Shown: one piece after another, positions 304 through 37,193 of the stretch
Numbering within the stretch: position 1 is the first letter of the stretch
How the letters are laid out: each line of letters opens with the position of its first letter
Virus record (IMG/VR): IMGVR_UViG_2534681832_000017
Location: 1 to 37,193 of that record
Length of the DNA: 37,193 nt
Direction: 5' to 3' (one strand)
DNA from: a virus
Taxonomy: Duplodnaviria; Heunggongvirae; Uroviricota; Caudoviricetes
Program-made: the position numbers and the translations under genes
Notes under the pieces: generated by a model
The model's database searches: none
The model's input: the letters and a program-made list of their open reading frames with translations, nothing else
Told to the model about the DNA's origin: nothing

Positions 304-768
304 ATGCTCGCGCTTATGCGTAAGTCTCTGGGTTCTCTTCCTGCTGTTCCCCTGAGTGTTGAAAATCCCATTGAATTAACGCTGACCGACTGGGTACGTG
401 ATGGTAGTGCTCCACAGGGATTTCAAATGGGGGATGCGGCAGAACTTAAGGCAGTGCTTGAGGATGGCGGTATTGCCCGAGTGAAAAAGCAGGATTTGGG
501 AAGCGATGAAATTTCCACACACCTGGAAGCTGGCAAGCTCGTCACTAAGTTGGCACTCGACTGGCAGAACCGCATTAAATTTACACTGGACCATAACTTC
601 AGCCTTACCAGCGTCAAATTTGCGGATGAATTGCTTGAGCAGAACTCTGATATTGATAGTGAAGATGTTGCGCAGCGACTGGACGCAGATTTCTTCCTGT
701 TGACCAGTGAAATTTCGTGCCTGGTTGATGCTCTGGTAAATGCCCTTGGCGGAGAGGCTAAGCAGTGA
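304..768 (+). CDS. RdgC-like recombination-associated protein, C-terminal half only (possible truncated hrdC-type gene)
   Basis: ORF track; recalled RdgC C-terminal signature ([25 protein letters not shown]...LGGEA); in-frame similarity continues upstream only to a stop at 226-228, so the N-terminal half is missing; GTGA overlap with next gene. Confidence 0.45.
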
Positions 769-3700
769 AAGAGCTGTGCTATGGATCTGTTTGCAGTGGA
801 ATTGAAGCCGCGAGTATTGCCTGGGAACCGTTGGGTATGCGTCCGGCGTGGTTTGCTGAAATCGAGCCTTTTCCATCGGCCGTTCTTGCGCTCCGCTGGC
901 CCCATGTTGCCAACCTTGGCGACATGAAAAAACTTGCCAAAAAAGTCTTGGCTGGGGAAATCGAATCCCCTGACGTGCTCGTCGGGGGAACACCATGTTT
1001 TACCGCGGGGCATATGGTTCTTTGTAAAAATGGCTATAAACCAATAGAAAATGTTTGCCCTGGTGATTACGTAGTCAGTCATCTCGGGCGGTTACAACAA
1101 GTAAAAAGAGTTGGTTCAAAAATAGCTAATACGGGGTTACTTAATGCCGTTGGGCAGCCTTTAGGTATAAGAACAACCAATGACCATCCCTTCCTGGCTG
1201 TTCGGTGGAAAGCCCAAAACACCCGGAAAAATGGCACATATTTTAAGAGAGAGTTGTTGTCTGAACCGGAATGGCGAGCAGCATGTGATATGCCGGGATA
1301 TCAATGGTGCGCTCTAACTAATTTCAATATTGCATTTCCAGATATTTGTTCTCGGTTCTTGTCTGAAGAACAGGCTATGTATCTTGCGGGCGCTTATGTT
1401 GGCGATGGATATATTAGGAGATGGAGAGGTAAATCTAAGAAGGCGGTTGTTTTTGGCATAAATTGCCAGAAATTGAGAAAGTTTCATTGCCGCATACCAG
1501 AAAACATATTTTCCGTGGCAAGCGAAATCCGAGGGAGCATCAAAGTAACCTTGAATGATACGTGTTATGCCAATTGGCTTAATGAACATTTTGGCGAGTT
1601 AAGCCATGCTAAGCGTATCCCTGCATGGGTGATGTCGCATCCATTGCGTCATGTGTTTTTACAAGGCTATCTTGATACTGATGGGACACCAAGTGGTAAA
1701 GCGGGATTTAGAATTAATAGTGTTAGTTCTGCGCTTGCTTGGGGCGTTGCGGGGTTGTCACAGACTTGTGGTTATGTTTCTTCGGTCAGCTTTATTGAAG
1801 TTGAGCCCAAAAAAGTGATCGAGGATCGCGTGGTAAATCAACGGAATTATTATCAGGTAACAATCTGCCCGCAGAAATTGTCACGTAAATCAAGATTGGC
1901 TCATGGAATGCTTTTACGAACAGTCAAAGAGTTTAAATCGGTAGGCCTAGATACTGTATACAACATAGAAGTCGAAGGTGATCATTCCTATATCCTCAAT
2001 GGTGCGGTGGTCCATAACTGTCAGGCATTCAGTATCGCGGGATTACGTGGTGGGCTTGATGATGAGCGTGGCGCGCTAACTTTAAAGTATGTGGAGCTTG
2101 CAAATGCAATTGACGACAAACGGGCTGAGTCATTTCTCAAACCAGCCGTTATCGTCTGGGAAAATGTCCCAGGAGTCTTGTCATCGGCAGATAACGCCTT
2201 CGGATGTTTCCTTGCCGGATTGGCTGGAGAAGATGTGCCATTTGAACCAGGTGATCGACCTGAATCAGGAAAAAGCAACGCGTTCTGGCGGTGGGATGGC
2301 AAAACCGGTTGCCATGTTCCAAAGTGGCCGCAGTGTGGTTGTATTTATGGACCGCAGCGAAAAGTGGCTTGGAGAATCCTTGATGCCCAATACTTCGGAG
2401 TGGCACAACGACGCCGACGCGTGTTTGTTGTCGCAAGTGCTCGAACAGATCTCGATCCCGCAACGGTACTTTTTGAGTTCGAAGGCGTGCGCCGGAATAT
2501 TGCGCCGAGCAGAGGCGAGGGGAAGGAAACTACCAGATATACTTCAAACATCGCTATCAGAACTTGCGATGATACAAACATAATTGCCATGGCACATGGG
2601 CAAGGAGGGGCTGAGATAAAAACCGATAATTCGGCACCAACTTTGACATGTAACCATGAAGCACCAATTGTATTGCTCGGCGACGGTAGAATGCGCCGTC
2701 TTACCCCTGTCGAATGTGAAAGGCTGCAAGGTTTTCCTGATTGGCATACGTTGATCCCTACGGAAAAGCGTAAAAAAGTTAATTCAGATGAACTGGCATA
2801 TCTGCACAATCACTATCCAGATTTAAGCGAAGAAGAGGCCGCAATGCTTGCAGCTGACGGACCGCGTTACAAAGCGATCGGCAATAGTATGGCAATACCA
2901 GTAATGCGCTGGATTGGCGATCGGATTACTAAGGCCGTATGTCGGCAGAAAGAAGGAAGTGAAACAAAAGAGCGAAAAGTTAAACCAGCGGCAGAATTCG
3001 AACGGTCCATATTCAAATGGGCTGGTGGAAAATTTGGTGTTCTGGAACAAATCTTTCGCTATTTGCCAGAAGGGAAGCGCCTGATTGAACCTTTCGTTGG
3101 TGGCGGAGCTGTCTTCATGAATGCCGGATACCAGGAAAATCTGCTAAATGATGTGAATGCTGACCTGATTAACTTTTACAAGACTCTGCAACGCGAGGCG
3201 CATTCACTTATCACTCTGGCACATCGTTTCTTCCAGGACTACAACACACAGGAAGGATACCTGGCAGTACGGAATGCGTTTAACAAACAAGTCTATGATG
3301 ATTTACATCGCGCAGCGGCGTTTTTGTTCCTGAACCGACATTGTTTTAACGGATTGACGCGTTACAACCAGGCCGGTGAGTTCAATGTCGGTTATGGGAA
3401 GTATAAAACTCCGTATTTCCCATTACAGGAGATGGAAGCCTTCCTCGGTGCGGAAGGGCGGTCTGAGTTTGTATGCGGTGATTTTGCAGCGGTGATTGAA
3501 GCTGCCGGAGAAGGAGATGTCATCTTTTGCGATCCGCCGTATGAACCGCTTCCAAATACAGAGGGATTCACGAACTATTCCGGTCATGACTTTAAGTTTG
3601 AAGAGCAAAAACGCCTGGTGTCTCTGTTGACGGATGCTCATCGTCGAGGTGCAAAGGTTCTCATTACTAACAGTGGCGCGCCAAACATCAGAGAGCTTTA

Positions 3701-3806
3701 TCATGACAGTGGCTTCAGAGTGGAACCTCTTTTTGCCAGACGTTCTGTGTCTTGTAAGGGGGACACTCGAGGTGTAGCTCATGACGTTTTTGGTATATTG
3801 CTCTAA
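765..3806 (+). CDS. dmt: bifunctional DNA methyltransferase: N-terminal C5-cytosine MTase (interrupted by intein) fused to C-terminal Dam-type N6-adenine MTase
   Basis: GTG start coupled to upstream gene; C5 motifs: GGTP|CQAFSIAG (PCQ, split by insert), [28 protein letters not shown]; Dam motifs: [24 protein letters not shown]. Confidence 0.85.
996..2018 (+). mobile_element. intein (341 codons) with LAGLIDADG homing-endonuclease domain, inserted at catalytic Cys of the C5-MTase PCQ motif
   Basis: Insert begins CFTAGHMV (Hint block A-like), contains TTNDHPF (block B-like), [12 protein letters not shown] (1380-1415) and [11 protein letters not shown] (1656-1688), ends NGAVVHN followed by Cys+1 (2019); excision restores [12 protein letters not shown]. 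Confidence 0.8.
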
Positions 3807-20745: not shown

Positions 20746-20767
20746 TAGTTACAGTGTCACTTTTAAT

Positions 20768-20798
20768 GCTGGTGGAGTGCGCCCACCAGCATTTTTTT
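20768..20798 (+). terminator. rho-independent terminator
   Basis: Stem GCTGGTGG/CCACCAGC, 7-nt loop, followed by T7. Confidence 0.6.
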
Positions 20799-20817
20799 CG
20801 TCCAATGAGGAGGGCAT

Positions 20818-21324: not shown

Positions 21325-21340
21325 TTGCTCTAATAAATCT
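21324..21340 (+). promoter_or_regulatory. C1-type operator (16/17), overlapping stop of upstream gene
   Basis: ATTGCTCTAATAAATCT. Confidence 0.55.
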
Positions 21341-21518
21341 TGATTTTTAAAACAGAGAAAGTGAAAATAAAAACATGCCGCAAGACGCGGCATGTATCCA
21401 ATCAATCACAGGAGCTGAAAATATGAACACGGCATTCAAAATCATTATGGCCGCGATCTATTTCTGGCTGTTCTCTATCACTTTTGGCGGCATCGTCGCA
21501 CATGGGTAAGGGGGATGC

Positions 21519-22247
21519 ATGAAAGGCGAAGTGAAAGAGCGCGGCATGATTTTCAACGATGAGATGGTCCGGGCCATCCTCGAAGGAAGGAAAACGCAGA
21601 CGCGGCGGATAATGAAAAATCAGCCTGCGGAAGTTGGTCCAGAAGCACCAGTGATGGTTAGAAAAATTGGTGCAGGTTTTCAGTGGTACGGGGCTGATGG
21701 TGTAAGCAGTGTTTTCAATTGCCCCTTTGGTATCGTCGGCGATCGAATTTGGGTTCGTGAAACATGGGCGATATTAGGCAATGAGGATGGTTGCAGTGTG
21801 GACTGGAACGACAACCTTTGTCGTGGCGATGAGAAGAACGCAGCAAGGATTTATCGGGCCAGTTGCGAGCAAAAACCTGGTGATTACGGCTTATGGTCGA
21901 TACCCGATGATGCCGACTGGAAACCTCACACTGTGAATGAAAAGTTTGATGGTGGGTGGCGTCCATCAATTCACATGCCGCGATGGGCATCACGCATCCT
22001 GTTGGAAATTACCAACGTGCGCGTTGAGCGGTTGAACGATATCAGCGAATGCGATGCAAGGGCTGAGGGCGTTCCGCCTGCTGGGAGTTTGCTTCCTGAT
22101 CACCCGGGAACATTCCTTACTCCCAAGGGGGATTTCGCAATGGCCAAGGTTGCGTTCCAGCGCCTGTGGGAATCCATCTATGGTGAAGAAAGCTGGAACG
22201 CTAATCCCTTGGTGTGGGTAATCGAGTTTAAGCGCATTCAGGAATAA
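21519..22247 (+). CDS. conserved phage protein, ASCH/PUA-like N-terminus
   Basis: ORF track; N-terminal MIFNDEMVRAILEGRKTQTRR (GxKTxxxR) resembles ASCH-type fold (recalled). Confidence 0.5.
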   Translation: MKGEVKERGMIFNDEMVRAILEGRKTQTRRIMKNQPAEVGPEAPVMVRKIGAGFQWYGADGVSSVFNCPFGIVGDRIWVRETWAILGNEDGCSVDWNDNLCRGDEKNAARIYRASCEQKPGDYGLWSIPDDADWKPHTVNEKFDGGWRPSIHMPRWASRILLEITNVRVERLNDISECDARAEGVPPAGSLLPDHPGTFLTPKGDFAMAKVAFQRLWESIYGEESWNANPLVWVIEFKRIQE

Positions 22248-22330
22248 ACCGTGAGTATGCATCAAATCGTCAGTTTTTCAGGTGGACGAGCATCGGCCTG
22301 TCTCGTTCATCTGTTCGAAGAGGTAGTGGC

Positions 22331-22534
22331 ATGACAATCGTAAAAACCCATACCGGCACCGTGATCACCAAAGACGGGCCGCAGGTAAAAAAACTGCACC
22401 AAACAGAGCGGATGTGGGTCGTCGGCAAAAATGAGTTTTACCACAAAGATACCGGACGCCGCCACTTTGCAGAAAATACGCGCCGTCGACTGCTGTTAGA
22501 CACCATCAAGCCTATCGAGGTGAAGCATGTTTAA
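22331..22534 (+). CDS. hypothetical small protein
   Basis: ORF track. Confidence 0.4.
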   Translation: MTIVKTHTGTVITKDGPQVKKLHQTERMWVVGKNEFYHKDTGRRHFAENTRRRLLLDTIKPIEVKHV

Positions 22535-22766
22535 ACAGAACGAAAAAGCTATCGCTCAAATTGCTGATTATATCCCGCGTGCGTGCCGGGGTATGCAGTT
22601 GCAGGAAGCCAAAGCGCGCCTGGAGAAAAAAATTGCGCTCTATATTGATGACGGCTGTGATGCTGCCGTTCTTAACGCGGCGTTCGCACCAGCTCTTAAC
22701 AGTCATACTCGGGAGTCTTTTTTTTCGTGCATCGAAGCGCAACTCCGCAAAGGAGGCAGCCAGTGA
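22527..22766 (+). CDS. hypothetical small protein
   Basis: ORF track; stop overlaps GTG start of next gene. Confidence 0.45.
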   Translation: MFKQNEKAIAQIADYIPRACRGMQLQEAKARLEKKIALYIDDGCDAAVLNAAFAPALNSHTRESFFSCIEAQLRKGGSQ

Positions 22767-23464
22767 GCGAAATTAATTACCGGGCACTGCGTGAGATAGC
22801 AAAACAGGCAACACAGGGCGAATGGGTCGCATTTATTTCGCCGGGTACTGGTACGTATGCGGTGCACACGCCCGGTGATGAACGATGTGAAGACGTTATC
22901 AAATGGACCGGCTTTGATGGACAGAAAAATGCAGAGAACAACGCTCGTCATGTTGCCGCGTTCAACCCAAAGGTTGCACTGGAGCTGCTTGGTGAAATTA
23001 AGTGCTTGGAGGACACAAATATTGATGCCACGTGCCGAATTTCAGAGCTTGAGACTAATCTCGCGGCGCTGGTGGCAGAGAACGCCGGGCTGAAACACGC
23101 AATGGCCGTAACTCTTGAGCATGTGTCGGTCACGGATGCAGGGCAGGCTGGTGTTGCTGCAATGATTATCAACGATGCCCTACACCACAGCGAAACTCCA
23201 GCTACCGATGCTTTTCTGGCTGAAATTCGTGCGGAAGCACGCAACGAGGGGATTAACTATACCGCCAGCCGTCTTGCTGCTGCGTTCAATCACGGATTTA
23301 TCAATAAGTCTTTGCGTGAAGTTTTCGACGTTACACGCATGATTTTGTCAGCGAAAGAAGAGTTGGCTAATGAACCGTACCCGATTGATGGCCTGTCTGG
23401 TGAATATGCGGAGAAATCCCTTGAAGAATGGGCGGAACAGATTAGCAAAGGAGGCAACCAGTGA
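22763..23464 (+). CDS. Ead/Ea22-like protein, paralogue 1
   Basis: GTG start in AAGGAGGCAGCCAGTGA coupling motif; N-terminus VSEINYRALREIAKQATQGEW matches paralogue at 23943. Confidence 0.5.
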   Translation: MSEINYRALREIAKQATQGEWVAFISPGTGTYAVHTPGDERCEDVIKWTGFDGQKNAENNARHVAAFNPKVALELLGEIKCLEDTNIDATCRISELETNLAALVAENAGLKHAMAVTLEHVSVTDAGQAGVAAMIINDALHHSETPATDAFLAEIRAEARNEGINYTASRLAAAFNHGFINKSLREVFDVTRMILSAKEELANEPYPIDGLSGEYAEKSLEEWAEQISKGGNQ

Positions 23465-23946
23465 CTTTACATGCAGCAATCCTCGACATGTGCTGTGGCA
23501 GTCGCATGTTCTGGTTCGATAAGAAGGACGACCGGGCGATATTTAGCGATATCAGAAAGGAAGAGCACACATTGTGTGATGGACGACGGCTGATAATTAG
23601 CCCTGACCTGATAGCAGATTTTCGTGCATTACCATTTGCAGACGCATCGTTTCCGATTGTTGTATTCGACCCTCCGCATCTTGAGCGTGTTGGTGATAAC
23701 GCCTGGATGGGAAAGAAATATGGACGGCTGAATAAAGATACCTGGCGTGATGATTTGCGGCAGGGATTTAAAGAAGCCTTTCGTGTGTTGTGGCCATACG
23801 GCGTTCTGATTTTTAAATGGAATGAAACGCAAATACCTGTTCGCCAAATATTGGCACTGACCGACAGAAAGCCTGTTATCGGTCAACGAACAGGAAAGGG
23901 TGACAAGACCCACTGGATTATTTTTATGAAGGAGGGCAACCAGTGA
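23461..23946 (+). CDS. small putative DNA amino-methyltransferase (DPPH motif)
   Basis: GTG start, GTGA coupling; motif I-like ILDMCCGSRMFWFD and motif IV-like IVVFDPPH. Confidence 0.5.
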   Translation: MTLHAAILDMCCGSRMFWFDKKDDRAIFSDIRKEEHTLCDGRRLIISPDLIADFRALPFADASFPIVVFDPPHLERVGDNAWMGKKYGRLNKDTWRDDLRQGFKEAFRVLWPYGVLIFKWNETQIPVRQILALTDRKPVIGQRTGKGDKTHWIIFMKEGNQ

Positions 23947-24716
23947 GCGAGATTGACTATCAGGCGCTGCGTGAAGCAGCAGAGAAAGCAACTAAAGGAT
24001 GCTACATCGTAGGGCATACATCGGGCAATCAGCATGAGAATATAACAGGAGTTTTTGTTTGTCAAAAATGGAAAGGAGAACCCGGTGGCGTAATTGCAGA
24101 ATGTCATGTTAACTGCCTGATTGAATCAGATGATCAGGCTTATGCAAACGCTGAATTCATAGCAGAGGCTAACCCGGCTACCGTGCTGGCACTGCTGGAT
24201 GAACAGGAAAGAAACCAGCAATACATCAAACGCCGCGACCAGGAGAACGAGGAGATTGCGCTTACGGTTGGGAAGCTGCGTGTTGAGCTTGAAGCAGCAG
24301 AGAACAACCTTATTGATAGTGAATGCCATGTTGCTGAACTGGAAGAAGCTCTACGCGATAAGCAGGCGTTACTTGAAGCCTCAGAAAAGCGCAACGCAAA
24401 ATTACAAAGCGAGAATGCATACATCCGCAACCGGTACAAAGAACTGGACCTATTAATCGGGAAAAACATTCTGGTCATGCAGGCTGCCATTATCGAATGG
24501 CAGGCAACTGGCGACGCTAAGAGCGGACTAGCATGGATTTATAACACACTGTTTGGCCCTGGCGAATTACCGGACGAATCTGAGAAAGATGCTCAGGCCT
24601 ACTTTAATCGCAAATATGCACCGATTGACGAAAAGCTTATGGCGCTTCACAAGTGGTTTTGGGAACAAAGTGAAGCCGAGCGCGCCGCTGGCATTCGCAT
24701 CAAAGGAGGTGAGTAA
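23943..24716 (+). CDS. Ead/Ea22-like protein, paralogue 2
   Basis: GTG start in same AGGGCAACCAGTGA coupling motif; N-terminus MSEIDYQALREAAEKATKG; central coiled coil. Confidence 0.5.
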   Translation: MSEIDYQALREAAEKATKGCYIVGHTSGNQHENITGVFVCQKWKGEPGGVIAECHVNCLIESDDQAYANAEFIAEANPATVLALLDEQERNQQYIKRRDQENEEIALTVGKLRVELEAAENNLIDSECHVAELEEALRDKQALLEASEKRNAKLQSENAYIRNRYKELDLLIGKNILVMQAAIIEWQATGDAKSGLAWIYNTLFGPGELPDESEKDAQAYFNRKYAPIDEKLMALHKWFWEQSEAERAAGIRIKGGE

Positions 24717-24871
24717 TGCGTGTGGCATGTATCGGCTTGTTACCGTATCCGACTCGTTTTTGGGCTTCTGCGCTAATTGCAAAGAACATCATCCCGACAC
24801 CAAAGCGCCGCCATACCGGTATTGCAGCGGCACGACGAGCAGCAAAGAGATGCAGGAGAGCAAAACGATGA
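24716..24871 (+). CDS. hypothetical small basic protein (51 aa)
   Basis: TAATG overlap with upstream gene, SD AAGGAGGTGAG; ATGA overlap with next ORF. Confidence 0.35.
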   Translation: MRVACIGLLPYPTRFWASALIAKNIIPTPKRRHTGIAAARRAAKRCRRAKR

Positions 24872-25056
24872 AAAACCGTAAAGCAAAGATTCTGTTAGTT
24901 CGTAGAAACGCTCCTGGCGTCTGGCAGTGGGTGAGACTCAGCAACCGACGGATGGGGTTGATGAAATATTACGGGATGATGGATTGTGGTTTTTGCAAAA
25001 AGCCCAGCGCGGAGCAAAACCGCTGGAAAAACCACTTGCGCACTAAAGGAGAGTGA
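24868..25056 (+). CDS. hypothetical small protein (62 aa)
   Basis: Internal start of track ORF 24553-25056 chosen because the upstream part overlaps the preceding gene. Confidence 0.4.
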   Translation: MKNRKAKILLVRRNAPGVWQWVRLSNRRMGLMKYYGMMDCGFCKKPSAEQNRWKNHLRTKGE

Positions 25057-25057
25057 T

Positions 25058-25267
25058 ATGGCTATTGCTGCAAGTTACACCATGCATCTCTATTGTGATT
25101 GCCTCCAGTGTACAGATGGCAAATATAAGTCGCCAGACTTCGGTGAGTATATAGGTACGTCATGGGCTGGCTGTGCAAAAGAGGCGCGCAAGGATGGCTG
25201 GCGAATAAGCAAAGACAAAACGCGTGCTTTTGCGCCCGGGCATAAAGTTTTGAGGATTAACAAATGA
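25058..25267 (+). CDS. small Cys-rich protein
   Basis: ATG one nt after upstream stop, SD AAAGGAGAG; CDCLQC...C motif. Confidence 0.45.
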   Translation: MAIAASYTMHLYCDCLQCTDGKYKSPDFGEYIGTSWAGCAKEARKDGWRISKDKTRAFAPGHKVLRINK

Positions 25268-26106
25268 CCACTATTACCAAAGAGCGACTGCTGACAATCA
25301 AGCAGTGGCGCGAAACATACGGACCTGGTAGCAACGTTGTACTGCCAGCAGAAGAAGCGGAAGAACTGGCACGGATTGCTCTGGCAGCGCTGGAAGCTGA
25401 ACCTGTTCTGTATCAGTCCTGCACTCGCCCCACTTGGAATAGCGGTGTTCCGTGGACGGAATGGAAAGAACGTAGTCGTGAGGGCTACGAAAACGATTTG
25501 CGCTTTACAGACACGCCTGACCATGCCGGTTGGATAAACAAATGCCGAAAACTATATACCACTCCGCCAGTTCCGGTAATACAGGCTGATGTCGCGCAAG
25601 CAATTGAAAACCTCAAGCAGAAGTTAGTGGAATGCAATCGCTATAACTACTGCGCAGATGCAGTTAAAGGCGTAGAGGATGCCTGCCGTGCTGTTAGCTA
25701 TAGCCAAGCCGACAATCAACCAGCATCTGGCAACCAGGCTGCCGAATCCAATCGCGGTAATGAGTGGACTGGCAATCCTGATATTGATAACGCCATCATC
25801 ATGCTCGACCGCATAGATACGCTGGAAAATTGCGATGATGACCGTATTGAGGCTGTTAAGGCTGTTTTGCGTAGACTGGCTGGCAACTCTCCGGTAACTC
25901 CGGATAGTTGGATAAGCTGTAGTGAGCGAATGCCGGAAGAAACGGGTGACATTATTGTTGTTTCTGATGGCATTGTAATGTCAGGGATTTCTTATTCTCG
26001 TCGTGACGGGTTCTATATAGCCGCATTGGAGTACGACGACGATGAGCCAATTGGCGGTGTAACCCACTGGATGCCGTTACCAGAACCGCCGCAGGAGGCA
26101 AAATGA
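25264..26106 (+). CDS. phage protein with DUF551-like C-terminal domain
   Basis: ORF track; C-terminus WISCSERMPEE...GVTHWMPLPEPP. Confidence 0.55.
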   Translation: MTTITKERLLTIKQWRETYGPGSNVVLPAEEAEELARIALAALEAEPVLYQSCTRPTWNSGVPWTEWKERSREGYENDLRFTDTPDHAGWINKCRKLYTTPPVPVIQADVAQAIENLKQKLVECNRYNYCADAVKGVEDACRAVSYSQADNQPASGNQAAESNRGNEWTGNPDIDNAIIMLDRIDTLENCDDDRIEAVKAVLRRLAGNSPVTPDSWISCSERMPEETGDIIVVSDGIVMSGISYSRRDGFYIAALEYDDDEPIGGVTHWMPLPEPPQEAK

Positions 26107-26363
26107 TGGATGTAAAAGAGAAGGTTTTGCAGGTGATGCGTTCCCGTGCTGCCCTGCAAGAGAAAGCTCTCGGCGGGGAATATCCATTCAGGATGGCAAC
26201 CTGGAATTTGCGGTTGGCAATGGAGAAGGAATTTCCTGATGAAGAATGGCGTTCGGCAGATTTGCGCAAAATTCTTATGGAGCTGGCTAAAGACGGAGCA
26301 GTATCCAAAGATACCTATGCCAGCCGGATTGGTCAGGCGGTATGGAGACTGGAGGTGCGGTAA
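26103..26363 (+). CDS. hypothetical small protein
   Basis: ORF track; ATGA-type coupling on both sides. Confidence 0.5.
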   Translation: MMDVKEKVLQVMRSRAALQEKALGGEYPFRMATWNLRLAMEKEFPDEEWRSADLRKILMELAKDGAVSKDTYASRIGQAVWRLEVR

Positions 26364-26644
26364 TGGCTAACCTGCAACTTGCCGTTAAAGGTGAATACTT
26401 CGATGCCATGATTCGCGGGGAGAAAACGGAAGAGTATCGCCTGTGTAATGACTACTGGAATAAGCGCCTCGTTAACTGTAAGTATGACCGCCTGATTATC
26501 ACAAAGGGATATCCGAAGCGCGAAGACTTCAGTCGCAGAATTGACGTCCCGTATAACGGATATGAAATAAAAACAATCACACATCCACACTTCGGTGATA
26601 AACCGGTAAAGGTGTTCGCGATAAAAGTGAAGATTAATAGCTAA
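26363..26644 (+). CDS. ASCH-like small protein
   Basis: Start at internal ATG with SD GGAGGTG; MANLQLAVKGEYFDAMIRGEKTEEYR. Confidence 0.5.
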   Translation: MANLQLAVKGEYFDAMIRGEKTEEYRLCNDYWNKRLVNCKYDRLIITKGYPKREDFSRRIDVPYNGYEIKTITHPHFGDKPVKVFAIKVKINS

Positions 26645-26667
26645 ATTTCAATTAACACGGAGTAATT

Positions 26668-26961
26668 ATGTGGCGCGGTAATAATCATGGCGGAAGTCAG
26701 ATGATACTTACCGAATATACGTTCGACCACAAAACCAATAAATCACGTTCAGTATATTTGCTTCGGCACAATAGCCGCGTAAGAAATACCGTTCTGGAGC
26801 AAAATCTGACCGTTGAAATGGATAATTTGGGAAACTTCAAGCCAACAATATCGCTTGATGATTTTCCGTGTGGTTTAAGCGAAAGAGAAGCAATGCTGAA
26901 ATTAGCAGAATGGCTACAAAGATTAAGCATTGCTATTGAAGATAACTGGCCTGAACCTTAA
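26668..26961 (+). CDS. hypothetical small protein
   Basis: ORF track; SD GGAG. Confidence 0.5.
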   Translation: MWRGNNHGGSQMILTEYTFDHKTNKSRSVYLLRHNSRVRNTVLEQNLTVEMDNLGNFKPTISLDDFPCGLSEREAMLKLAEWLQRLSIAIEDNWPEP

Positions 26962-26967
26962 ATTAAT

Positions 26968-27342
26968 ATGATGACACTAAAACATTTTCTTGACCGCCCA
27001 TTATGGGCGGCAGCCGCAGGCTATGACTTTAATTATATGGATTGCATGTCTTATACTGCCAATGCATACGACCATTCGTTCAGCCTGCTGTTTAATTCTT
27101 TAAGAATATTGCCGGAAACAGAAGTTGGAGAGCTTCATTTATGGATATTGGGCTTTATCGCGGCTGGAGTTGGTATTGCCGTATGGCCTTTTATTTTCTG
27201 GCTGGTGGCTGTTGTAGTGTGGTTTAAGTGCAAGACGTACCGGAAAAAGTATTTCTTAGGTGATGGAATGACTGATATTGCCAAAATGAACATTGAAAAA
27301 TGGACTAAGGAATGTGAAAAGAAATGGCGCAAAAAGAAATGA
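26968..27342 (+). CDS. hypothetical membrane protein
   Basis: ORF track; two hydrophobic helices (LWILGFIAAGVGIAVWPFIFWLVAVVVWF). Confidence 0.5.
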   Translation: MMTLKHFLDRPLWAAAAGYDFNYMDCMSYTANAYDHSFSLLFNSLRILPETEVGELHLWILGFIAAGVGIAVWPFIFWLVAVVVWFKCKTYRKKYFLGDGMTDIAKMNIEKWTKECEKKWRKKK

Positions 27343-28013
27343 CTACTCTAACGACAGCATACTTACAGCAATTGGTATTTTTTGCAGGCGAGGCTACTTG
27401 TCATCCTGACGCAAACTATTTATTGGAATTTGAGAGGTTAGCGTCACCCGGTATCGTTCTGGAACTGGCCCAACAGGTGCTGGCCTTGAGACAAAAAGAG
27501 CAACATGAAAGTAATACGTGTAGATTGAATTTTGAGCAGTGGCTGGAACAGCAACGCGGAAAAATCGATGTGGACTGTGGTTGTGTGTCCACTGAAACAT
27601 TCATGCACTGGCTGCGGGTAGCTTACGAGGCTGGCAACTATCCGGATATTCCGGATATTCCGGATAGTTCGGTGCCAGCGCCAGGAAAGGGCGTCACAGG
27701 TGAACGTATCCGCATTAAGCCGCATGTTTATCGCGAACTGGTTAACCGTCTCCACGATACAGCGATCAAGTGTGCTGGCACCCAGCAATTACGAGAAAGA
27801 ATTAGCCGTGTTTTGGGCGACGTTATTACGCCAGACCATCATAAACAAGCCGAGAAAAGTGACCTGGAAAGGTGTCACCTTGAGGCGGCATTAAACATTA
27901 AGCCGGGGCATACGCTTGGCATTATCGATGCTCTGTTGGTTCATAAGATGGCCAGGGCTTTATTGCCGCTGGTGGCTGAAAAGCATGAGGCGGACCATGC
28001 CAACGAAAGCTGA
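27339..28013 (+). CDS. hypothetical protein
   Basis: ATGA overlap with upstream gene preferred over track start 27324. Confidence 0.5.
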   Translation: MTTLTTAYLQQLVFFAGEATCHPDANYLLEFERLASPGIVLELAQQVLALRQKEQHESNTCRLNFEQWLEQQRGKIDVDCGCVSTETFMHWLRVAYEAGNYPDIPDIPDSSVPAPGKGVTGERIRIKPHVYRELVNRLHDTAIKCAGTQQLRERISRVLGDVITPDHHKQAEKSDLERCHLEAALNIKPGHTLGIIDALLVHKMARALLPLVAEKHEADHANES

Positions 28014-28281
28014 GTTACAGGCGCGCATAGATATTCTTGAAAAAGAGAATGCGAGTCTAAAAGGAATGCTGGCGCGGGCGGAAAGGGAATTATCAGGCAA
28101 ATTATTGCCAGAAGAGCTGCCACCAGCAGATATACCTGATCGAGTGTCCTGGTGGATGAAGTATTTCCGTGCACCGTGGGAGGCGTTTTGGTGCTACGAC
28201 CATCGCAGATGGTGTGATGAGCTTGATAGCAGTTTCCCCTATTTTGCGGAAGGGAACTCTTGCCCTGAATGTAGGAGTTAA
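27997..28281 (+). CDS. hypothetical protein, paralogue A (Cys/His C-terminal motif)
   Basis: Internal ATG of track ORF; C-terminus PWEAFWCYDHRRWCDELDSSFPYFAEGNSCPEC. Confidence 0.45.
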   Translation: MPTKAELQARIDILEKENASLKGMLARAERELSGKLLPEELPPADIPDRVSWWMKYFRAPWEAFWCYDHRRWCDELDSSFPYFAEGNSCPECRS

Positions 28282-28586
28282 TGATGACCGGCGAGCTTTA
28301 TTTTAAAATGGCACGGGAGCGGCGTGTGCATCTGGATCGGATATTTCATCTCCAGAAGAGAGTAGAAGAACTGGAACGTCGTCTGAACTGTTATCCTGTT
28401 GATATGGTGTCTGCAATACCGCCGATTCCAATAGAAATGCAGATCCGCCTATGGATGGAAGAATATGGAATGCCGTGGGAGATATTTTTCTGCTTCGACC
28501 ATAAACAGTGGGTAGATGAGCTGGATAATAGTTTCCCATATTTCACAGAGAACACATGCCCAGTATGCAGGAAGAACGGAATATGA
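28281..28586 (+). CDS. hypothetical protein, paralogue B (Cys/His C-terminal motif)
   Basis: ORF track; TAATG coupling; C-terminus PWEIFFCFDHKQWVDELDNSFPYFTENTCPVC. Confidence 0.5.
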   Translation: MMTGELYFKMARERRVHLDRIFHLQKRVEELERRLNCYPVDMVSAIPPIPIEMQIRLWMEEYGMPWEIFFCFDHKQWVDELDNSFPYFTENTCPVCRKNGI

Positions 28587-29107
28587 CAAAATTTGGAAAG
28601 CTGGAAGCTCATTTGCTAACTCGTAACTACCGCCATGATATACACCCATATAGACAGTGGATCGATGAAAGTGAAGGAGTAGTTACATTCCCTCTATACA
28701 GGTTTGATGGGATGTTGGCTGGGTATCAGACATATAGACCAGGTGCTCCTAAGCAGCATAGCAATCCGAAGATGGCCCGGTATTTCACGCGATCACATGG
28801 CAGACAGTTACTTTGGGGAACCTATCTTCCTTTAAAAGATGGCCCAATATGGATAACTGAGTCTATTTTTAAGAGCGCAGCTGTACACAACGCGGGCGGC
28901 AATTCGTGGGCGCTGTTAGGTTCGACTTTCTCCGCAGGATTACGCCGTCAACTTGCGATGCTGCCGTATGACTTTCGTGTAATAGGTGACAATGATGCGG
29001 CTGGTGAATTACTTGTGAAGTCTTTCGGAAAAGGTTTTGTGGCCCCGGATCTTGACGAGCTACAACCACATGAAGTGTCTCATTTGATTTTTAGCCATAG
29101 CCAATAA
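28583..29107 (+). CDS. Toprim-domain-like protein
   Basis: ATGA overlap start; conserved Glu (IWITESIF) and DxD (VIGDNDAAGE) spacing typical of Toprim. Confidence 0.45.
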   Translation: MTKFGKLEAHLLTRNYRHDIHPYRQWIDESEGVVTFPLYRFDGMLAGYQTYRPGAPKQHSNPKMARYFTRSHGRQLLWGTYLPLKDGPIWITESIFKSAAVHNAGGNSWALLGSTFSAGLRRQLAMLPYDFRVIGDNDAAGELLVKSFGKGFVAPDLDELQPHEVSHLIFSHSQ

Positions 29108-29123
29108 GCATCTCTCCCCTTTG

Positions 29124-29142
29124 AGGCCACAATTAGTGGCCT
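29124..29142. terminator. hairpin between convergent genes (possible bidirectional terminator)
   Basis: Stem AGGCCAC/GTGGCCT with AATTA loop. Confidence 0.45.
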
Positions 29143-29167
29143 TAAACAATGTGTTTTCTACCTCGAT

Positions 29168-29383
29168 TTAGCCTCTATTATCGTTTTGCATTTCTCTAAT
29201 CCGGTTCAGAACTACTTCATGCTGGGCTTGGATAGCAGCTTTTTCGTTTTCAAGTCGGGCAATAGACATCTCTAATTCTTTGCTGTACCAGGCGAGTTGG
29301 GCCAGGTTCATCCGGTTGTGGTCGAGAGTTGGAGACACTTCGACGCGATCCCTTTCTTCCTGCTTTAATGAGAAGAGATTCAT
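29168..29383 (-). CDS. hypothetical small coiled-coil protein
   Basis: ORF track. Confidence 0.45.
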   Translation of the reverse strand: MNLFSLKQEERDRVEVSPTLDHNRMNLAQLAWYSKELEMSIARLENEKAAIQAQHEVVLNRIREMQNDNRG

Positions 29384-29413
29384 CTCATCCCTTGAGGAAA
29401 ATTCAGCAACAAT

Positions 29414-29749
29414 TTATTGTTGATGATCCGGTCGCTGCGGCATCCTCGCCAGTATAAATGGCGGTTCTTTTGAAAACATGAATGTCGGTTCAGACCGTGT
29501 TTTTACCCAGCTTGCCTGCTGTCTTTCGGCAAGTTCACAGGCTTCATCATAGTTATTTGCCAAACCAAGCACGGATGGACGGTCCCACGCGCCACCATTC
29601 AGACAATAAACAACAATTTTCCCGTCAGGTTGTGTAACCCCATAGGGATGGTCCCACCAGACGTCCAGCTGAGCTTTAGAGCGTTTCTCGTTAGGAGTGC
29701 AGTCAAAATTTTTGGGCAATACAGGATCGAGAGGAATGCGGGCAGGCAT
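29414..29749 (-). CDS. hypothetical protein, divergent from humD and sharing its SOS-box region
   Basis: ORF track; 111 aa. Confidence 0.5.
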   Translation of the reverse strand: MPARIPLDPVLPKNFDCTPNEKRSKAQLDVWWDHPYGVTQPDGKIVVYCLNGGAWDRPSVLGLANNYDEACELAERQQASWVKTRSEPTFMFSKEPPFILARMPQRPDHQQ

Positions 29750-29884
29750 AGCTAATTCCTTATTAACTGATTGGCAACGAGGTTACGCTGATCCGTTGGT
29801 GATGAATAGTAGCAAAGCGCACAAAATCATCAGCGGTGGTTGATGTACGTAACGCGTTTGCACCAAAGGTGTCTCTTTAATGTA

Positions 29885-29904
29885 TACTGTATAAATGAAC
29901 AGTA
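29885..29904. promoter_or_regulatory. LexA (SOS) box
   Basis: TACTGTATAAATGAACAGTA fits CTGT-N8-ACAG; lies 20 nt upstream of humD start in the divergent region. Confidence 0.7.
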
Positions 29905-29923
29905 TTGTTGAGGTGAAAACGCT

Positions 29924-30313
29924 ATGGGCTTCCCTTCTCCTGCGGCGGATTATGTTGAAAGCCGAATTTCTCTTGATCAGCAACTAATCAGGCATCCATC
30001 AGCGACCTACTTCATGCGGGCGGCAGACAGCCATCACCGTGAGGGAATATTGCAGGGTGCTTTGCTGGTGGTTGATTCCTCGCTTACTCCGGTTGATGGT
30101 TCGCTGCTTGTCTGCGCTATGGAGGGTGAATATCGCATAAAGAGATACCGAAAGTATCCGCGCCAGCACCTGGAGGATTTAAGCACCGGGAAGAAAGAGG
30201 CGTTACCAGTAGATGACGATGGTTACACGGGTAGTAATGCTGTTTTTGGTGTGATCACTCATGTCATCAATGATGCCCGAAGTGGGGAATTTGATGATTG
30301 TCCGGTGATTTAA
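29924..30313 (+). CDS. humD: UmuD'-like protein (pre-processed UmuD homologue; S24 peptidase fold)
   Basis: Begins MGFPSPAADYVE.RI.L.Q.LI.HPSATYF, i.e. at the residue after the UmuD Cys24-Gly25 cleavage site; Ser and Lys of the catalytic dyad region present. Confidence 0.8.
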   Translation: MGFPSPAADYVESRISLDQQLIRHPSATYFMRAADSHHREGILQGALLVVDSSLTPVDGSLLVCAMEGEYRIKRYRKYPRQHLEDLSTGKKEALPVDDDGYTGSNAVFGVITHVINDARSGEFDDCPVI

Positions 30314-32330: not shown

Positions 32331-32783
32331 ATGTTACTTAACTGGCAGGGACGCCACTTCATGGAAATAAATCACTCACGAATAACATCGTACGAGATTG
32401 CGGATTACATGATCCGCACTAAATCTCTTCTATCAGCGAAAGAACTCGCAGCAATTCTTGAAAAGGAATACCCGCATCTGGATGTCGATAAGCGCGATGT
32501 TTATCTGCGCTTAAAGGCTATCGCTGTGTCTAAGTATTCGTCTGTTTTGATTGATGACAGTACACGCCCACGTAGATTTCAGATCCACTCTCTGAATCCT
32601 GAATTCTTTCGCCGTAGCCGCGCTCCGCGCCGGTTTGATGAAAAACTCCAGAACGAACTCTATATGACGCAGGACGAAAAGGAACGCCGGGAGCACCAGC
32701 CTTGGGTAATGGCGCGTCAACTTTTCAATAAGGTGGCCCGTCAGCACCGTCATTACGGTAATGCCACATCCGCACGTATCTGA
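32331..32783 (+). CDS. lpa: probable late-promoter activator
   Basis: ORF track; 150 aa; assignment from size, position before pacA and upstream operator-like site as recalled for P1, not from a recognised motif. Confidence 0.45.
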   Translation: MLLNWQGRHFMEINHSRITSYEIADYMIRTKSLLSAKELAAILEKEYPHLDVDKRDVYLRLKAIAVSKYSSVLIDDSTRPRRFQIHSLNPEFFRRSRAPRRFDEKLQNELYMTQDEKERREHQPWVMARQLFNKVARQHRHYGNATSARI

Positions 32784-32793
32784 TTGATTGCTT

Positions 32794-32811
32794 GCCCGTT
32801 CCGGGCCTTTT
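32794..32811 (+). terminator. rho-independent terminator
   Basis: GCCCG-TTC-CGGGC followed by CTTTTG. Confidence 0.5.
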
Positions 32812-32868
32812 GACATGTGACTTTCGTTACCCTCGCGTCAAAAAGAGTTTTTACGAAAGGAAGCATAA

Positions 32869-34062
32869 GTGACCTGGGACGATCACAAGAAGAATTTTGC
32901 TCGCCTGGCGCGAGATGGTGGTTACACCATCGCACAGTATGCCGCCGAGTTTAATCTTAACCCTAATACTGCACGTCGTTATCTCCGTGCCTTCAAAGAA
33001 GACACCAGGACAGCGGACAGCCGCAAGCCAAATAAGCCAGTCAGGAAGCCACTAAAAAGCATGATCATTGATCACTCTAATGATCAACATGCAGGTGATC
33101 ACATTGCGGCTGAAATAGCGGAAAAACAAAGGGTTAATGCCGTTGTCAGTGCCGCAGTCGAGAATGCGAAGCGCCAAAATAAGCGCATAAATGATCGTTC
33201 AGATGATCATGACGTGATCACCCGCGCCCACCGGACCTTACGTGATCGCCTGGAACGCGACACCCTGGATGATGATGGTGAACGCTTTGAATTCGAAGCG
33301 GGCGATTACCTGATAGATAACGTTGAAGCGCGGAAGGCCGCGCGCGCTATGTTGCGTCGTTCCGGAGCTGATGTTCTGGAAACCACTCTTCTGGAAAAGT
33401 CTCTTTCTCATCTCCTTATGCTGGAGAACGCCCGGGATACGTGTATTCGCTTGGTGCAGGAAATGCGCGATCAGCAAAAAGACGATGATGAAGGTACTCC
33501 GCCTGAATACCGTATCGCGAGCATGCTAAACAGCTGTTCCGCGCAGATAAGCAGCCTGATCAACACCATTTACAGCATCCGCAATAACTATCGAAAAGAA
33601 AGCCGGGAGGCGGAAAAGCACGCTTTATCTATGGGGCAAGCTGGCATTGTTAAGCTGGCATACGAACGAAAGCGTGAAAATAACTGGTCAGTGCTGGAAG
33701 CGGCTGAATTCATCGAGGCGCATGGAGGGAAAGTGCCGCCCCTGATGCTGGAGCAAATCAAAGCCGATCTGCGTGCTCCTAAGACAAATGCCGATGATGA
33801 GGAAAGGCAAACTGCCGTCGGTGGCCCTTCTCTTGAAGATCTGGACAAAGTTGCGCGAGAACGGGCCGCCAACCGCCGCGCCGATGCTGCATTGTGGATT
33901 GAGCAACGTAGGGAAGAAATCGCCGATATCGTTGATACAGGCGGTTATGGAGATGTTGATACTGAAGGTGTATCAAACGACCCATGGCTGGAACAAGACC
34001 TGGACGAAGACGAGGAGGAAGACGAAGAAGTTACCCGCAAGCTATACGGGGATGATGATTAA
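32869..34062 (+). CDS. pacA: terminase small (pac-recognition) subunit
   Basis: ORF track (GTG start, SD GAAAGGAAG); contains the hexamer-repeat pac site; acidic C-terminus. Confidence 0.8.
33062..33220. other. pac packaging site: 4 + 3 TGATCR hexamers, each containing a Dam GATC
   Basis: TGATCA at 33062, 33069, 33081, 33096; TGATCG at 33192; TGATCA at 33204, 33215; about 90-bp spacer between clusters. Confidence 0.75.
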
Positions 34063-35546
34063 TGGCCAGAAGTTGCGTAACGGATCCACGTTGGCGCGAG
34101 CTGGTGGCGCTATATCGTTATGACTGGATTGCTGCCGCTGATGTTTTGTTCGGCAAAACACCTACCTGGCAGCAGGATCTGATTATTGAGTCTGTGCAGG
34201 AACAGGGTAGCAAGACATCTGTTTCGTCTGGTCACGGTACCGGGAAATCAGACATGACTTCTATCATGATCATGTTGTTCATAATCATGTATCCCGGTGC
34301 CCGCGCCATTATCGTTGCGAACAAAATTCAGCAGGTAATGACCGGTATATTCAAGTACATCAAGATAAACTGGGCTACTGCCACCAGCCGTTTTCCATGG
34401 CTTGCTGATTATTTTGTTCTGACAGAAACCGCTTTCTATGAGGTTACTGGTAAAGGTGTATGGACTGTAGTACCGAAGGGCTTTCGTCTGGGAAGTGAAG
34501 AAGCTCTCGCCGGTGAACACGCAGATCATCTTCTGTATATTATCGATGAAGCCTCCGGTGTCAGTGATAGAGCTTTCGGTATCATCACCGGTGCTCTTAC
34601 CGGACAGGATAACCGCATCTTATTACTGTCACAGCCTACACGCCCAAGCGGCTATTTCTACGATACTCACCATAAACTGGCCAAGCGTCCTGGTAACCCT
34701 GATGGCGTTTATACGGCGATCACGCTTAACAGTGAGGAATCACCGCTGGTAACGCCAGCATTTATCAAAATGAAGCTGGCGGAGTACGGCGGGCGTGATA
34801 ACCCTATGTACATGATTAAGGTACGCGGACTATTCCCTAAATCACAGGATGGCTTCCTTCTTGGACGTGATGAGGTTGAACGTGCGACGCGGCGGAAAGT
34901 CAAGATTGCCAAAGGATGGGGCTGGCTTGCATGTGTGGACGTTGCTGGTGGTACGGGACGGGATAAGTCCGTTATCAATATCATGATGGTGTCCGGCCAG
35001 AGAAATAAACGCCGTGTAATCAACTATCGAATGCTGGAATACACAGACGTTACAGAAACGCAGCTTGCCGCCAAAATTTTCGCAGAATGTAATCCTGAGC
35101 GATTCCCAAATATCACCATAGCTATTGATGGCGATGGCTTGGGGAAATCGACGGCTGATCTGATGTACGAACGCTATGGTATTACCGTCCAGCGTATCCG
35201 CTGGGGTAAAAAGATGCACAGCCGTGAAGATAAAAGCCTTTATTTCGATATGCGCGCTTTCGCGAATATTCAGGCGGCAGAAGCTGTAAAATCAGGTCGT
35301 ATGAGGCTGGATAAGGGGGCTGCGACTATAGAGGAAGCATCAAAGATACCGGTAGGGATAAATTCCGCAGGTCAATGGAAGGTGATGTCAAAGGAAGATA
35401 TGAAGAAAAAACTCAACCTGCACTCACCGGACCATTGGGATACATATTGTTTCGCTATGTTGGCGAACTATGTTCCCCAAGATGAAGTGCTTAGCGTCGA
35501 AGACGAAGCGCAGGTTGATGAAGCTCTGGCATGGCTTAATGAATGA
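34062..35546 (+). CDS. pacB: terminase large subunit
   Basis: ORF track; 494 aa; ATGA-type coupling to pacA; ATPase-like N-terminal region and DxD-containing C-terminal region. Confidence 0.75.
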
Positions 35547-35549
35547 ATA

Positions 35550-35566
35550 TTTGCTCTAATAAATTG
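35550..35566 (+). promoter_or_regulatory. C1-type operator (15/17) upstream of c4 module 3
   Basis: TTTGCTCTAATAAATTG directly after pacB stop. Confidence 0.5.
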
Positions 35567-35748
35567 TGTTTTTTAACTACCGATGTTACATTGAGCCTGA
35601 CCTCTTGCGCCTTGAGGCATTTTCGGTTTATGCTTATCAGGCACCTCATTAAAACGGGTGCCGGGATTGGCCTCCCGCTTAAGTCTAAGGCGATACAGAC
35701 GCCGCTCGCGTCTTTTTTTGTATCGGCGTACACGCACACCTCTACAAT

Positions 35749-35824
35749 GGTGGGCTGTATGGGGCTACCTTCGGGTAGGCTGGTTACCTTGGACGCCAGT
35801 AAGGCCAACTCCGTACAGTCCACC
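35749..35824 (+). ncRNA. c4-type antisense RNA, module 3 (divergent specificity)
   Basis: Same scaffold as c4 module 1 (GGTGGG...TTCG stem-loop...GCCAGT...GTCCACC) with compensated stem CTACC/GGTAG; b-prime CCTTGGA (35787-35793), a-prime AGGCCAA (35802-35808). Confidence 0.5.
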
Positions 35825-35884
35825 GCCAGCAAGATTGGTCTCTTCTGCGGTGGTTACATACCAACGTCTAAGGAGGCTGCCAAT

Positions 35885-36019
35885 ATGGCTACTATCCCTA
35901 CCCCAACTCATCCTGAATTTATCTGGCGCTTTTACTCCTGCCAAAAACGTCACTATCACTTCGTTATTGCACCAACAGAAGATGAGGCTCGCTCTTCAAG
36001 CGTACCCTGCACGTTTTGA
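35885..36019 (+). pseudogene. truncated icd homologue (44 codons)
   Basis: MATIPTPTHPEFIWRFYSCQKRHYHFVIAPTEDEARS then diverges and stops; SD AGGAGG overlapped by the module-3 b2 target. Confidence 0.5.
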
Positions 36020-36453
36020 TGGCGCATTCCTGGGGCATTTCTGATTGAGTCAATGCCATTTCTTCCAACATCTTCTTTATTAACGGCATTGCTAGCCACC
36101 AGCACCCCCCAGCTAGGGATAGCAAAATCAGGAGCGGTTTCGCATGCCTTTACCATATAATCGAAAGTGCTTCGATTGATCTCGTTTGCGTCGGGATTTA
36201 ATAGGCGAGAATATTGATATTTAGCATTTTCGTTGGTTGCGACTTTATATAGTTCTTGCTGCACCATCGCTTCAGAAAGTTTAAGACGTTTCATATCTGA
36301 CAGTAACTTCTTGCGCATGGATTCGTCTTGACTGACAGCAAAGCCGTAAACGTGCCCAAGGTATTTCGTATAATCGGTACAAATCTCCTTTACGCTTGAT
36401 GCTGCATTAACAGCCCCAGCTATAAATAATAACGGTAGTAATAGTTTTCTCAT
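35956..36453 (-). CDS. secreted/periplasmic hypothetical protein (signal peptide)
   Basis: Start at internal ATG with SD AGGTGAGG; MRKLLLPLLFIAGAVNAASS signal peptide with AxA site; 3-prime end overlaps truncated icd. Confidence 0.55.
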   Translation of the reverse strand: MRKLLLPLLFIAGAVNAASSVKEICTDYTKYLGHVYGFAVSQDESMRKKLLSDMKRLKLSEAMVQQELYKVATNENAKYQYSRLLNPDANEINRSTFDYMVKACETAPDFAIPSWGVLVASNAVNKEDVGRNGIDSIRNAPGMRHQNVQGTLEERASSSVGAITK

Positions 36454-36549
36454 TATAACCTCACCTGCCTTATAACTCATTTAGGGTACATATTTTCGCC
36501 TTTAAAAAAAAGAGGTTATTAGATCCAATTGTGTATTTATTAAGCACAC

Positions 36550-36566
36550 AATGCTCTAATAAATTT
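36550..36566 (+). promoter_or_regulatory. C1-type operator (16/17) upstream of c4 module 2
   Basis: AATGCTCTAATAAATTT; partial inverted copy just upstream. Confidence 0.55.
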
Positions 36567-36753
36567 GTATTTTTAAGTCGCGAATGCTATCTTTTCGCAT
36601 CATATTGACCTTTTAATCGTTCAGGCTTATAGTTCCGCCGTCGTAGCAAATTCTGCGACCGGGTTTAGCAGCCTGAATGTTAGTGCGGACAACCGCAGAT
36701 ATCCGATATTGCGGTATTTTTGTGTCCGTAAAACCGCGTTACGCCCAAATTAT

Positions 36754-36830
36754 GGTGGGGCGTGATGGGGAGGCTTCGGCCTGCTGGTTTCACTAACGCC
36801 AGTCTGCTAACCCCGTCACGTCCTGCCACC
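36754..36830 (+). ncRNA. c4: c4-type antisense repressor RNA, module 2 (altered specificity)
   Basis: 77 nt, identical scaffold to module 1 except b-prime CACTAAC (36791-36797) and a-prime CTGCTAA (36804-36810), matched by targets TTAGCAG / GTTAGTG upstream and in the icd leader. Confidence 0.65.
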
Positions 36831-36880
36831 TGTTTAGCAGCGGGTAGCAGGTTGTTAAACCTGTTAGTGAGGCCGTAACT

Positions 36881-37102
36881 ATGGTTAATGCCAATCCTTG
36901 CGCACGCCAAGAATTCATCTGGCGTTTCTATTCCTGTAAAAAACACCACTATCACTTCGTTATCGCAGCAACTGAAGACGAAGCACGCTCTCAATTGCCT
37001 GATGGCCCCTGCATTTTTACTGCCCGTTTTTCAACTAACTCGCGCAATTCACTTAGTTACTGGAGCCTCCCCTTCTCTGCCGACGTTCAGGGGGTTTTAT
37101 GA
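36881..37102 (+). CDS. icd: Icd-like small protein, module 2
   Basis: ORF track; 73 aa; paralogue of 9413-9634; ATGA coupling to downstream ant-like start. Confidence 0.65.
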   Translation: MVNANPCARQEFIWRFYSCKKHHYHFVIAATEDEARSQLPDGPCIFTARFSTNSRNSLSYWSLPFSADVQGVL

Positions 37103-37193
37103 AAAAACCTCTCGTCACCCGTAATGACATAGCCGAAGCGATCGCCCTGCATACTGCCTGTATGCCGACACGGGAGATCCCCGGCGCAATTGC
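37099..37193 (+). CDS. ant: antirepressor, module 2, N-terminal 31 codons only (runs off right edge)
   Basis: MKKPLVTRNDIAEAIALHTACMPTREIPGAIA parallels module-1 Ant N-terminus MRTSLVTREEMIEAIEQHTACISTRDIPGVIA. Confidence 0.6.
   Translation, partial: MKKPLVTRNDIAEAIALHTACMPTREIPGAI

Follow-up and report, generated by a model that had tools for sequence, protein, structure and literature searches.

A very probable P1-type packaging site within the pacA gene of a phage-plasmid, and the natural variation of its GATC hexamers

The DNA analyzed here (hereafter the window) is a stretch of 37,193 nucleotides, positions 1 to 37,193 of the IMG/VR virus record IMGVR_UViG_2534681832_000017. The gene order around the site of interest is collinear with that of phage P1: dmt, ban, the tail and head genes, pdcB, lpa, pacA and pacB. 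Inside pacA lies a dense array of TGATCA and TGATCG hexamers, with an IHF site and a cleavage zone predicted between its two halves. The following features are referred to throughout, in the order of their coordinates:

765..3806, + strand: dmt, bifunctional DNA methyltransferase (1013 amino acids versus 754 in P1; assigned by Pfam and by BLASTP against P1 Dmt)
32331..32783, + strand: lpa, late promoter activator of LPpac (150 amino acids; Pfam BPP1_LPA, E = 3e-57; P1 annotation)
32815..32833, + strand: Lpa-dependent late promoter LPpac, -22 box and -10 (P1 annotation 90475-90493)
32869..34062, + strand: pacA, pacase/terminase A subunit (397 amino acids, GTG start; P1 pacA is 90529-91722)
33062..33101: left hexamer cluster (HEX4), four copies of TGATCA at 33062-33067, 33069-33074, 33081-33086 and 33096-33101, exactly 40 bp
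33102..33191: spacer between the hexamer clusters, 90 bp
33124..33136, + strand: predicted IHF site AAACAAAGGGTTA, a 12/13 match to WATCAANNNNTTR, transferred from AF234172 90784-90796
33144..33153: predicted pac cleavage zone, transferred from the annotation of the P1 record (AF234172)
33192..33220: right hexamer cluster (HEX3), TGATCG at 33192-33197 and TGATCA at 33204-33209 and 33215-33220
33243..33248, + strand: eighth hexamer, TGATCG, 23 bp to the right of the seven-hexamer array
34062..35546, + strand: pacB, pacase/terminase B subunit (494 amino acids; length and position as in P1 pacB)

The seven hexamers of the two clusters span 159 bp (33062-33220), arranged as four, a 90-bp spacer and three, and each of the seven contains a GATC (at 33063, 33070, 33082, 33097, 33193, 33205 and 33216). 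The array occupies nucleotides 194-352 of pacA, within the 5′ third of the gene, and all seven hexamers fall inside the open reading frame. An initial annotation of this DNA had already described four TGATCA hexamers within 40 bp, a spacer of roughly 90 bp, and then one TGATCG and two TGATCA, all within pacA. That description is accurate: the left cluster is correct to the base, the spacer measures exactly 90 bp, the right-hand hexamers start at 33192, 33204 and 33215, and the reading frame encloses the whole array. The eighth hexamer is an addition to it. By analogy with P1, the left hexamers are presumed to be recognition elements for the pacase (PacA/PacB).

Is such a cluster expected by chance? 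Scanning the + strand of the whole window for TGATCR gives 37 sites per 37,193 bp, and the densest 160-bp stretch is the pac array, with seven. The next-densest 160 bp is far lower, and the scan of the whole window reveals no other pac-like cluster. In 500 shuffles preserving base composition, the maximum number of TGATCR per 160 bp never exceeded three; the Poisson probability of at least seven in 159 bp is approximately 1e-10, or approximately 2e-8 when all windows are allowed for. We also considered a general richness in GATC as the source of the cluster and ruled it out: GATC occurs 128 times in the whole window versus 144 expected, so there is no enrichment, and the TGATCR cluster is therefore local.

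The region is nearly identical to that of P1. Positions 33030-33270 align to the P1 genome (AF234172) without gaps and share 240 of 241 bases, and a megablast search with 32800-33500 returns P1, P7, RCS47, SJ46 and others at 95.6-98.4% identity, with the matching features annotated as pacA. The curated P1 record AF234172 places LPpac, pacA, the IHF site, four primary pac cleavage positions and pacB at the homologous coordinates. The likeness to P1 pac (AF234172/NC_005856, 90722-90880) thus comprises the 4+3 layout, the 90-bp spacer, the IHF site, the sequence of the cleavage zone, the place within pacA, and the accompanying LPpac, pacB and dmt. P1 pac has been described as a 161-bp segment in pacA with seven TGATCA/G repeats containing Dam sites (HEX4 and HEX3), an IHF site and a cleavage site (PMC10028697). 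The proposed match to the arrangement of the P1 packaging site is thus borne out by base identity, by curated annotation and by this published description alike. We found no sequence evidence against reading the site as P1 pac, and we regard 33062-33220 as very probably the pac at which a P1-family (Punavirus) phage-plasmid starts to package its DNA. P1 pac itself is already known, and in this respect the feature is canonical and ordinary.

Since the alignments are gap-free, window coordinates are obtained by subtracting 57660 from those of P1. The primary lower-strand cuts of P1 (90804/5 and 90810/11) transfer to 33144/5 and 33150/1, and the primary upper-strand cuts (90806/7 and 90812/13) to 33146/7 and 33152/3; positions 33140-33191 are identical to P1. 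The sole base that differs from P1 in the pac region is 33132, an A to G change that is synonymous (AGA to AGG) and sits in the unspecified N4 of the IHF consensus. The G variant is common to the window and phage 673R5.

The hexamers themselves are invariant among close relatives. In P7, SJ46, phiW39, RCS47, JL22 and P1-like plasmids, all seven hexamers and the eighth are unchanged and substitutions fall only between them; other punaviruses show only scattered point differences from the pac region of the window (94-98% identity). HEX3 is identical in P1, P7, SJ46, phiW39 and 673R5. The eighth hexamer is invariant in the same five phages and in E. coli copies at approximately 94% identity, which keep all eight. 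A 221-bp segment containing pac is present in 558 of 5,426 complete E. coli genomes, at 563 places (548 on plasmids and 15 on chromosomes), and PacA has matches on 601 plasmids in PLSDB.

The genes needed for a P1-like packaging module accompany the site. PacA is 96.5% identical in amino acids to P1 PacA and 99% to that of RCS47, and it matches PHROG 1711, terminase (E = 3e-204); its N-terminus has a weak helix-turn-helix match. PacB is 98% identical to RCS47 PacB. A Pfam search assigned neither PacA nor PacB to a terminase family. The segment 32784-32880, which holds LPpac and the start of pacA, is 100% identical to both P1 and P7. As a side observation, pacA of phage vB_EcoM-673R5 (ON470615.2, L005) is annotated as two CDS, Pac1 and Pac2, the gene being apparently split downstream of pac.

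It had also been proposed that the element encodes a Dam-type activity of its own in dmt, and the predicted protein agrees with this. The D12-class N6-adenine methyltransferase domain covers residues 752-984 (Pfam, E = 1.9e-56) and has a DPPY motif at residue 923. By BLASTP, the C-terminal 400 residues are approximately 92% identical to P1 Dmt, with the Dam part nearly identical, and this C-terminal domain is predicted to methylate GATC. The N-terminal half contains a C5-cytosine methylase domain (Pfam) that is interrupted by an insert. The insert is 340 amino acids long (approximately 996-2018), begins with CFTAGHMV, ends with AVVHN followed by Cys, and contains Hint and LAGLIDADG domains; its insertion point in the C5 half coincides exactly with the catalytic Cys of the PCQ motif. 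It is probably an intein with a homing endonuclease. The same insert occurs in RCS47, vB_EcoM-Ro157c2YLVW and OP279344, where the gene is annotated simply as dmt, and is absent from P1 AF234172. The central (target-recognition) part of the C5 half is also unlike P1. The insert would have to splice for a P1-like polypeptide to form; host Dam would suffice in E. coli.

Compared with P1, the element in the window is an RCS47-like mosaic that differs in the region after pacB. Megablast against P1, P7 and RCS47 covers 67-81% of the window at 96-99% identity, and similarity to P1 stops at approximately 35544, at the pacB stop codon. There is no c1 repressor gene in the remaining 1.6 kb after pacB. 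Where P1 has c1/coi, the window has an ORF of the Ash family (35543-36019, + strand), and on the minus strand of the segment 35543-37193 lies a 174-amino acid ORF whose Pfam match to a phosphatase-like domain (PTPlike_phytase) falls below threshold. The DNA from approximately 35986 is found elsewhere on other P1-like plasmids, in an Icd-like/KilAC antirepressor region; as a single piece, 35543-37193 occurs in no PLSDB record. RCS47 matches the right end of the window only to approximately 35995 and has ant between pacB and c1. At 9631-10665 there is a 344-amino acid ORF with a KilAC/ANT antirepressor domain, in an area only partly covered by P1 AF234172; this is one of several mosaic insertions relative to P1.

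Could the pac sequence be a silent relic in a defective P1-like plasmid that forms no particles? P1-like plasmids are very common in E. coli, as the 558 genomes carrying the segment illustrate, and many of them are rearranged. The right end of the window is not P1-like and no plasmid record has it whole, and pacA is split in some relatives, 673R5 with its Pac1 and Pac2 being an example. Against this, lpa, LPpac, pacA, pacB, dmt and the tail and head genes are all full length in the window and 96-99% identical to those of functional phages. We therefore consider a relic very unlikely and continue to read the site as an intact pac.

A different objection is that the hexamers could be a by-product of PacA coding, reflecting a repeated Asp-His/Asp-Gln linker motif and having no role at the DNA level. 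The linker encoded here is charged and of low complexity, and in five of the hexamers (hexamers 2-6) the first base is the third of a codon (xxT GAT CAx), so that each specifies Asp and then His, Gln or Arg. In hexamers 1 and 7, however, the first base is the second of a codon (xTG ATC Axx), and the residue specified is Ile (M-I-I and V-I-T); because two reading-frame registers are used, no single peptide motif can account for the array.

Diverged lineages allow a more direct separation of DNA from protein. The phage collection has only one diverged PacA, that of Cronobacter phage JK004, and the comparison set was therefore drawn from plasmids as well: Salmonella plasmids pCVMN1543, CP053320 and p21-SA00706-0, with PacA approximately 70% identical. 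Residues 58-110 are the most diverged part of PacA in these lineages. Nevertheless, hexamers 2-7 occur at identical gene positions (201, 213 and 228 on the left; 324, 336 and 347 on the right). The 36 nucleotides of these six hexamers are 97-100% identical, versus 48-51% for the other 134 nucleotides of pac, and a permutation test puts the chance of six random 4-mers all being identical at P of approximately 1e-4. Synonymous third positions within the hexamers are 100% kept, versus approximately 50% around them. In other words, the surrounding residues are largely replaced, but the nucleotide positions of the hexamers are retained, synonymous thirds included. Furthermore, when the hexamers of P1 were recoded synonymously, the titre fell approximately 9-fold (PMC10028697). 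The coding explanation is largely refuted by the two registers and the conservation of synonymous positions in diverged lineages, and we consider it vanishingly improbable. The comparison supports a constraint on the hexamers as DNA, independent of the encoded protein, as expected of pac.

The same lineages differ from P1 in some details. Hexamer 1 is missing from JK004 and the Salmonella plasmids, which means that a natural 3+3 site exists; judging from these genomes, a natural lineage can dispense with hexamer 1, and the family does not strictly require the 4+3 layout. At gene position 213 the Salmonella copies read CGATCA. JK004 and the Salmonella plasmids share an A-rich AAAACA element that resembles an IHF site, and, as in the window, their pacA is directly followed by pacB. 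The eighth hexamer is displaced in the JK004 lineage to gene nucleotide 390, with another GATC at 365. In addition, Salmonella plasmids CP053320, NZ_CP146848 and NZ_CP009570 (L007-L009) carry an extra TGATCA at gene nucleotides 275-280, homologous to the cleavage zone of P1 (GTGATCAG versus GTTGTCAG in P1), which would place a Dam site at the cut site itself.

How widely is the array distributed among more distant pacA-like genes? Genes at 25-35% identity, each followed by a terminase gene, were found in Xenorhabdus, Serratia, Citrobacter, Leclercia, Pantoea and Enterobacter (L010-L015), on plasmids of 85-95 kb and on a 177-kb Xenorhabdus megaplasmid. They carry bipartite TGATCA arrays at gene nucleotides approximately 145-255 and 320-380. 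The counts in the two halves are 7+2 in Pantoea (with a 12-nucleotide spacing between six of the seven copies in the left cluster), 6+3 in Serratia, 3+2 in Xenorhabdus and 4+1 in E. kobei, and the arrays of Citrobacter and Leclercia are weaker. Compared with the remainder of each locus, TGATCA is enriched with P values between 1e-10 and 0.04, which are descriptive only because the zone (130-400 nucleotides) was chosen post hoc, after the arrays had been seen. A group of E. coli genes annotated as "DNA pacase A subunit" (L016) has no TGATCA array and is thus an exception to any claim about the whole family.

GATC clusters also characterize oriC, the P1 plasmid origin and sequestration by SeqA, and the cluster in the window lies within an operon. 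One could therefore propose that its main role is a different one dependent on Dam or SeqA, for instance as a methylation-sensitive origin or in controlling the transcription of pacA and pacB. At oriC, at the P1 plasmid origin and at the promoter and end of the IS10 transposase, activity is likewise set by the methylation state of GATC (full, hemi or none) and coupled to replication; unlike pac, these sites govern the initiation of replication or transposition rather than cleavage by a terminase. The P1 record, however, places the cleavage termini and the IHF site exactly at this location, and its annotation shows neither an origin nor transposon features at pac. The hexamers have been assigned to recognition by the pacase (PMC11260489, PMC10028697, PMC12707154), the first of these sources mentioning the seven hexanucleotide repeats of pac. 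Moreover, even in distant phage-plasmids, it is specifically the 5′ third of pacA-like genes, beside a terminase gene, in which the bipartite array reappears. We consider a different Dam/SeqA role highly improbable, and return to packaging initiation as the function of the array.

In a proposed model for P1, the pacase binds hemimethylated pac and further methylation promotes cleavage (PMC10028697). P1 depends on Dam methylation of pac, and in dam- hosts it cannot do without dmt (PMC12707154). Neither the cut positions nor the direction of packaging is given in PMC9024508, PMC10999674 or PMC2841073.

Because the sequences are nearly identical, we carry the P1 mechanism over to the element in the window; its protein binding, methylation dependence, cut positions and direction of packaging are all inferred in this way. 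During late lytic growth, Lpa would switch on LPpac, and PacA and PacB would be made. The pacase would then recognize both hexamer clusters only if host Dam or phage Dmt had methylated the adenines of their GATC sites, while IHF (with HU) would bend the spacer at 33124-33136. Staggered cuts would follow over approximately 10 bp, at 33144-33153. The end on the pacB side would enter the prohead, and processive headful packaging would proceed in the direction of pacB, toward the location that lox/cre has in P1. Newly replicated, hemimethylated pac sites would be bound and left uncut, which would limit cutting to a subset of the pac sites on a concatemer. The papers of Sternberg and Coulby from 1987 and 1990 and of Skorupski and colleagues from 1994 reportedly establish packaging toward pacB and, in P1, lox, as well as the requirement for HU, and are said to contain deletion data.

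A signal inside the gene of the DNA-recognition subunit of the terminase is familiar from other headful phages. In P22, SPP1 and Sf6, pac lies in or near the gene for the small terminase, and packaging is, as in P1, unidirectional, processive and headful. Unlike P1, to our knowledge, the pac sites of these phages have no methylatable GATC hexamers and are not regulated by Dam, and their small terminases are unrelated.

Pac-like DNA also occurs in a chromosomal island. This integrase-bounded island of approximately 18 kb holds a 2+2 pac (L021, 1463-1879; L022, approximately 12700-30200, in E. coli Z1323CEC0012, NZ_CP148435.1; and L023, fS10a). In Z1323CEC0012 the island lies between dinD and yicC. 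Its cleavage zone is identical to that of P1 and its IHF-like element differs by one base; hexamers 2, 4, 5 and 7 keep their sequence and the P1 spacing, and hexamers 3 and 6 are mutated. The host ORF of this copy is 138 amino acids long and is, by PHROGs, a chimera of PacA (positions 65-126) and the N-terminus of Ant. Among 5,426 complete E. coli genomes, 45 have this ORF at full length; the island is described from the two examples that we inspected. The island also encodes Rha, AntA/B, an Icd-like protein, a DUF927 primase, SSB and ProQ/FinO, and its large ORFs match PHROG families labelled endolysin and virion structural protein. The island may be a hitcher or satellite packaged by P1; searching the literature for a P1 satellite known to carry pac returned nothing specific. 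Together with the natural variants above, it is tempting to ask whether P1 pac, instead of being a fixed 4+3 site, is a cassette that can move and evolve, an idea that we put forward tentatively and think somewhat unlikely.

The site bears out that the element in the window is a P1-family phage-plasmid with an apparently complete, Dam-gated packaging module. Packaged DNA would be expected to start at approximately 33144-33153 and to read toward pacB, and knowing this start helps annotation, the construction of P1 phagemids and the prediction of which flanking genes would be the first to be transduced. For the window itself the finding matters little, and the comparative by-products are more informative. 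Natural variation provides evidence for constraint at the DNA level on six of the seven hexamers and supplies a natural 3+3 site, and TGATCA arrays appear to be a trait of PacA-type terminase genes across the family, with the E. coli group L016 as the exception. The island family with its trimmed P1 pac offers a testable route by which islands could be mobilized by P1-like phages. If the island copy of pac is functional, these islands would be hitchers, packaged and transduced at high frequency by P1-type phages.
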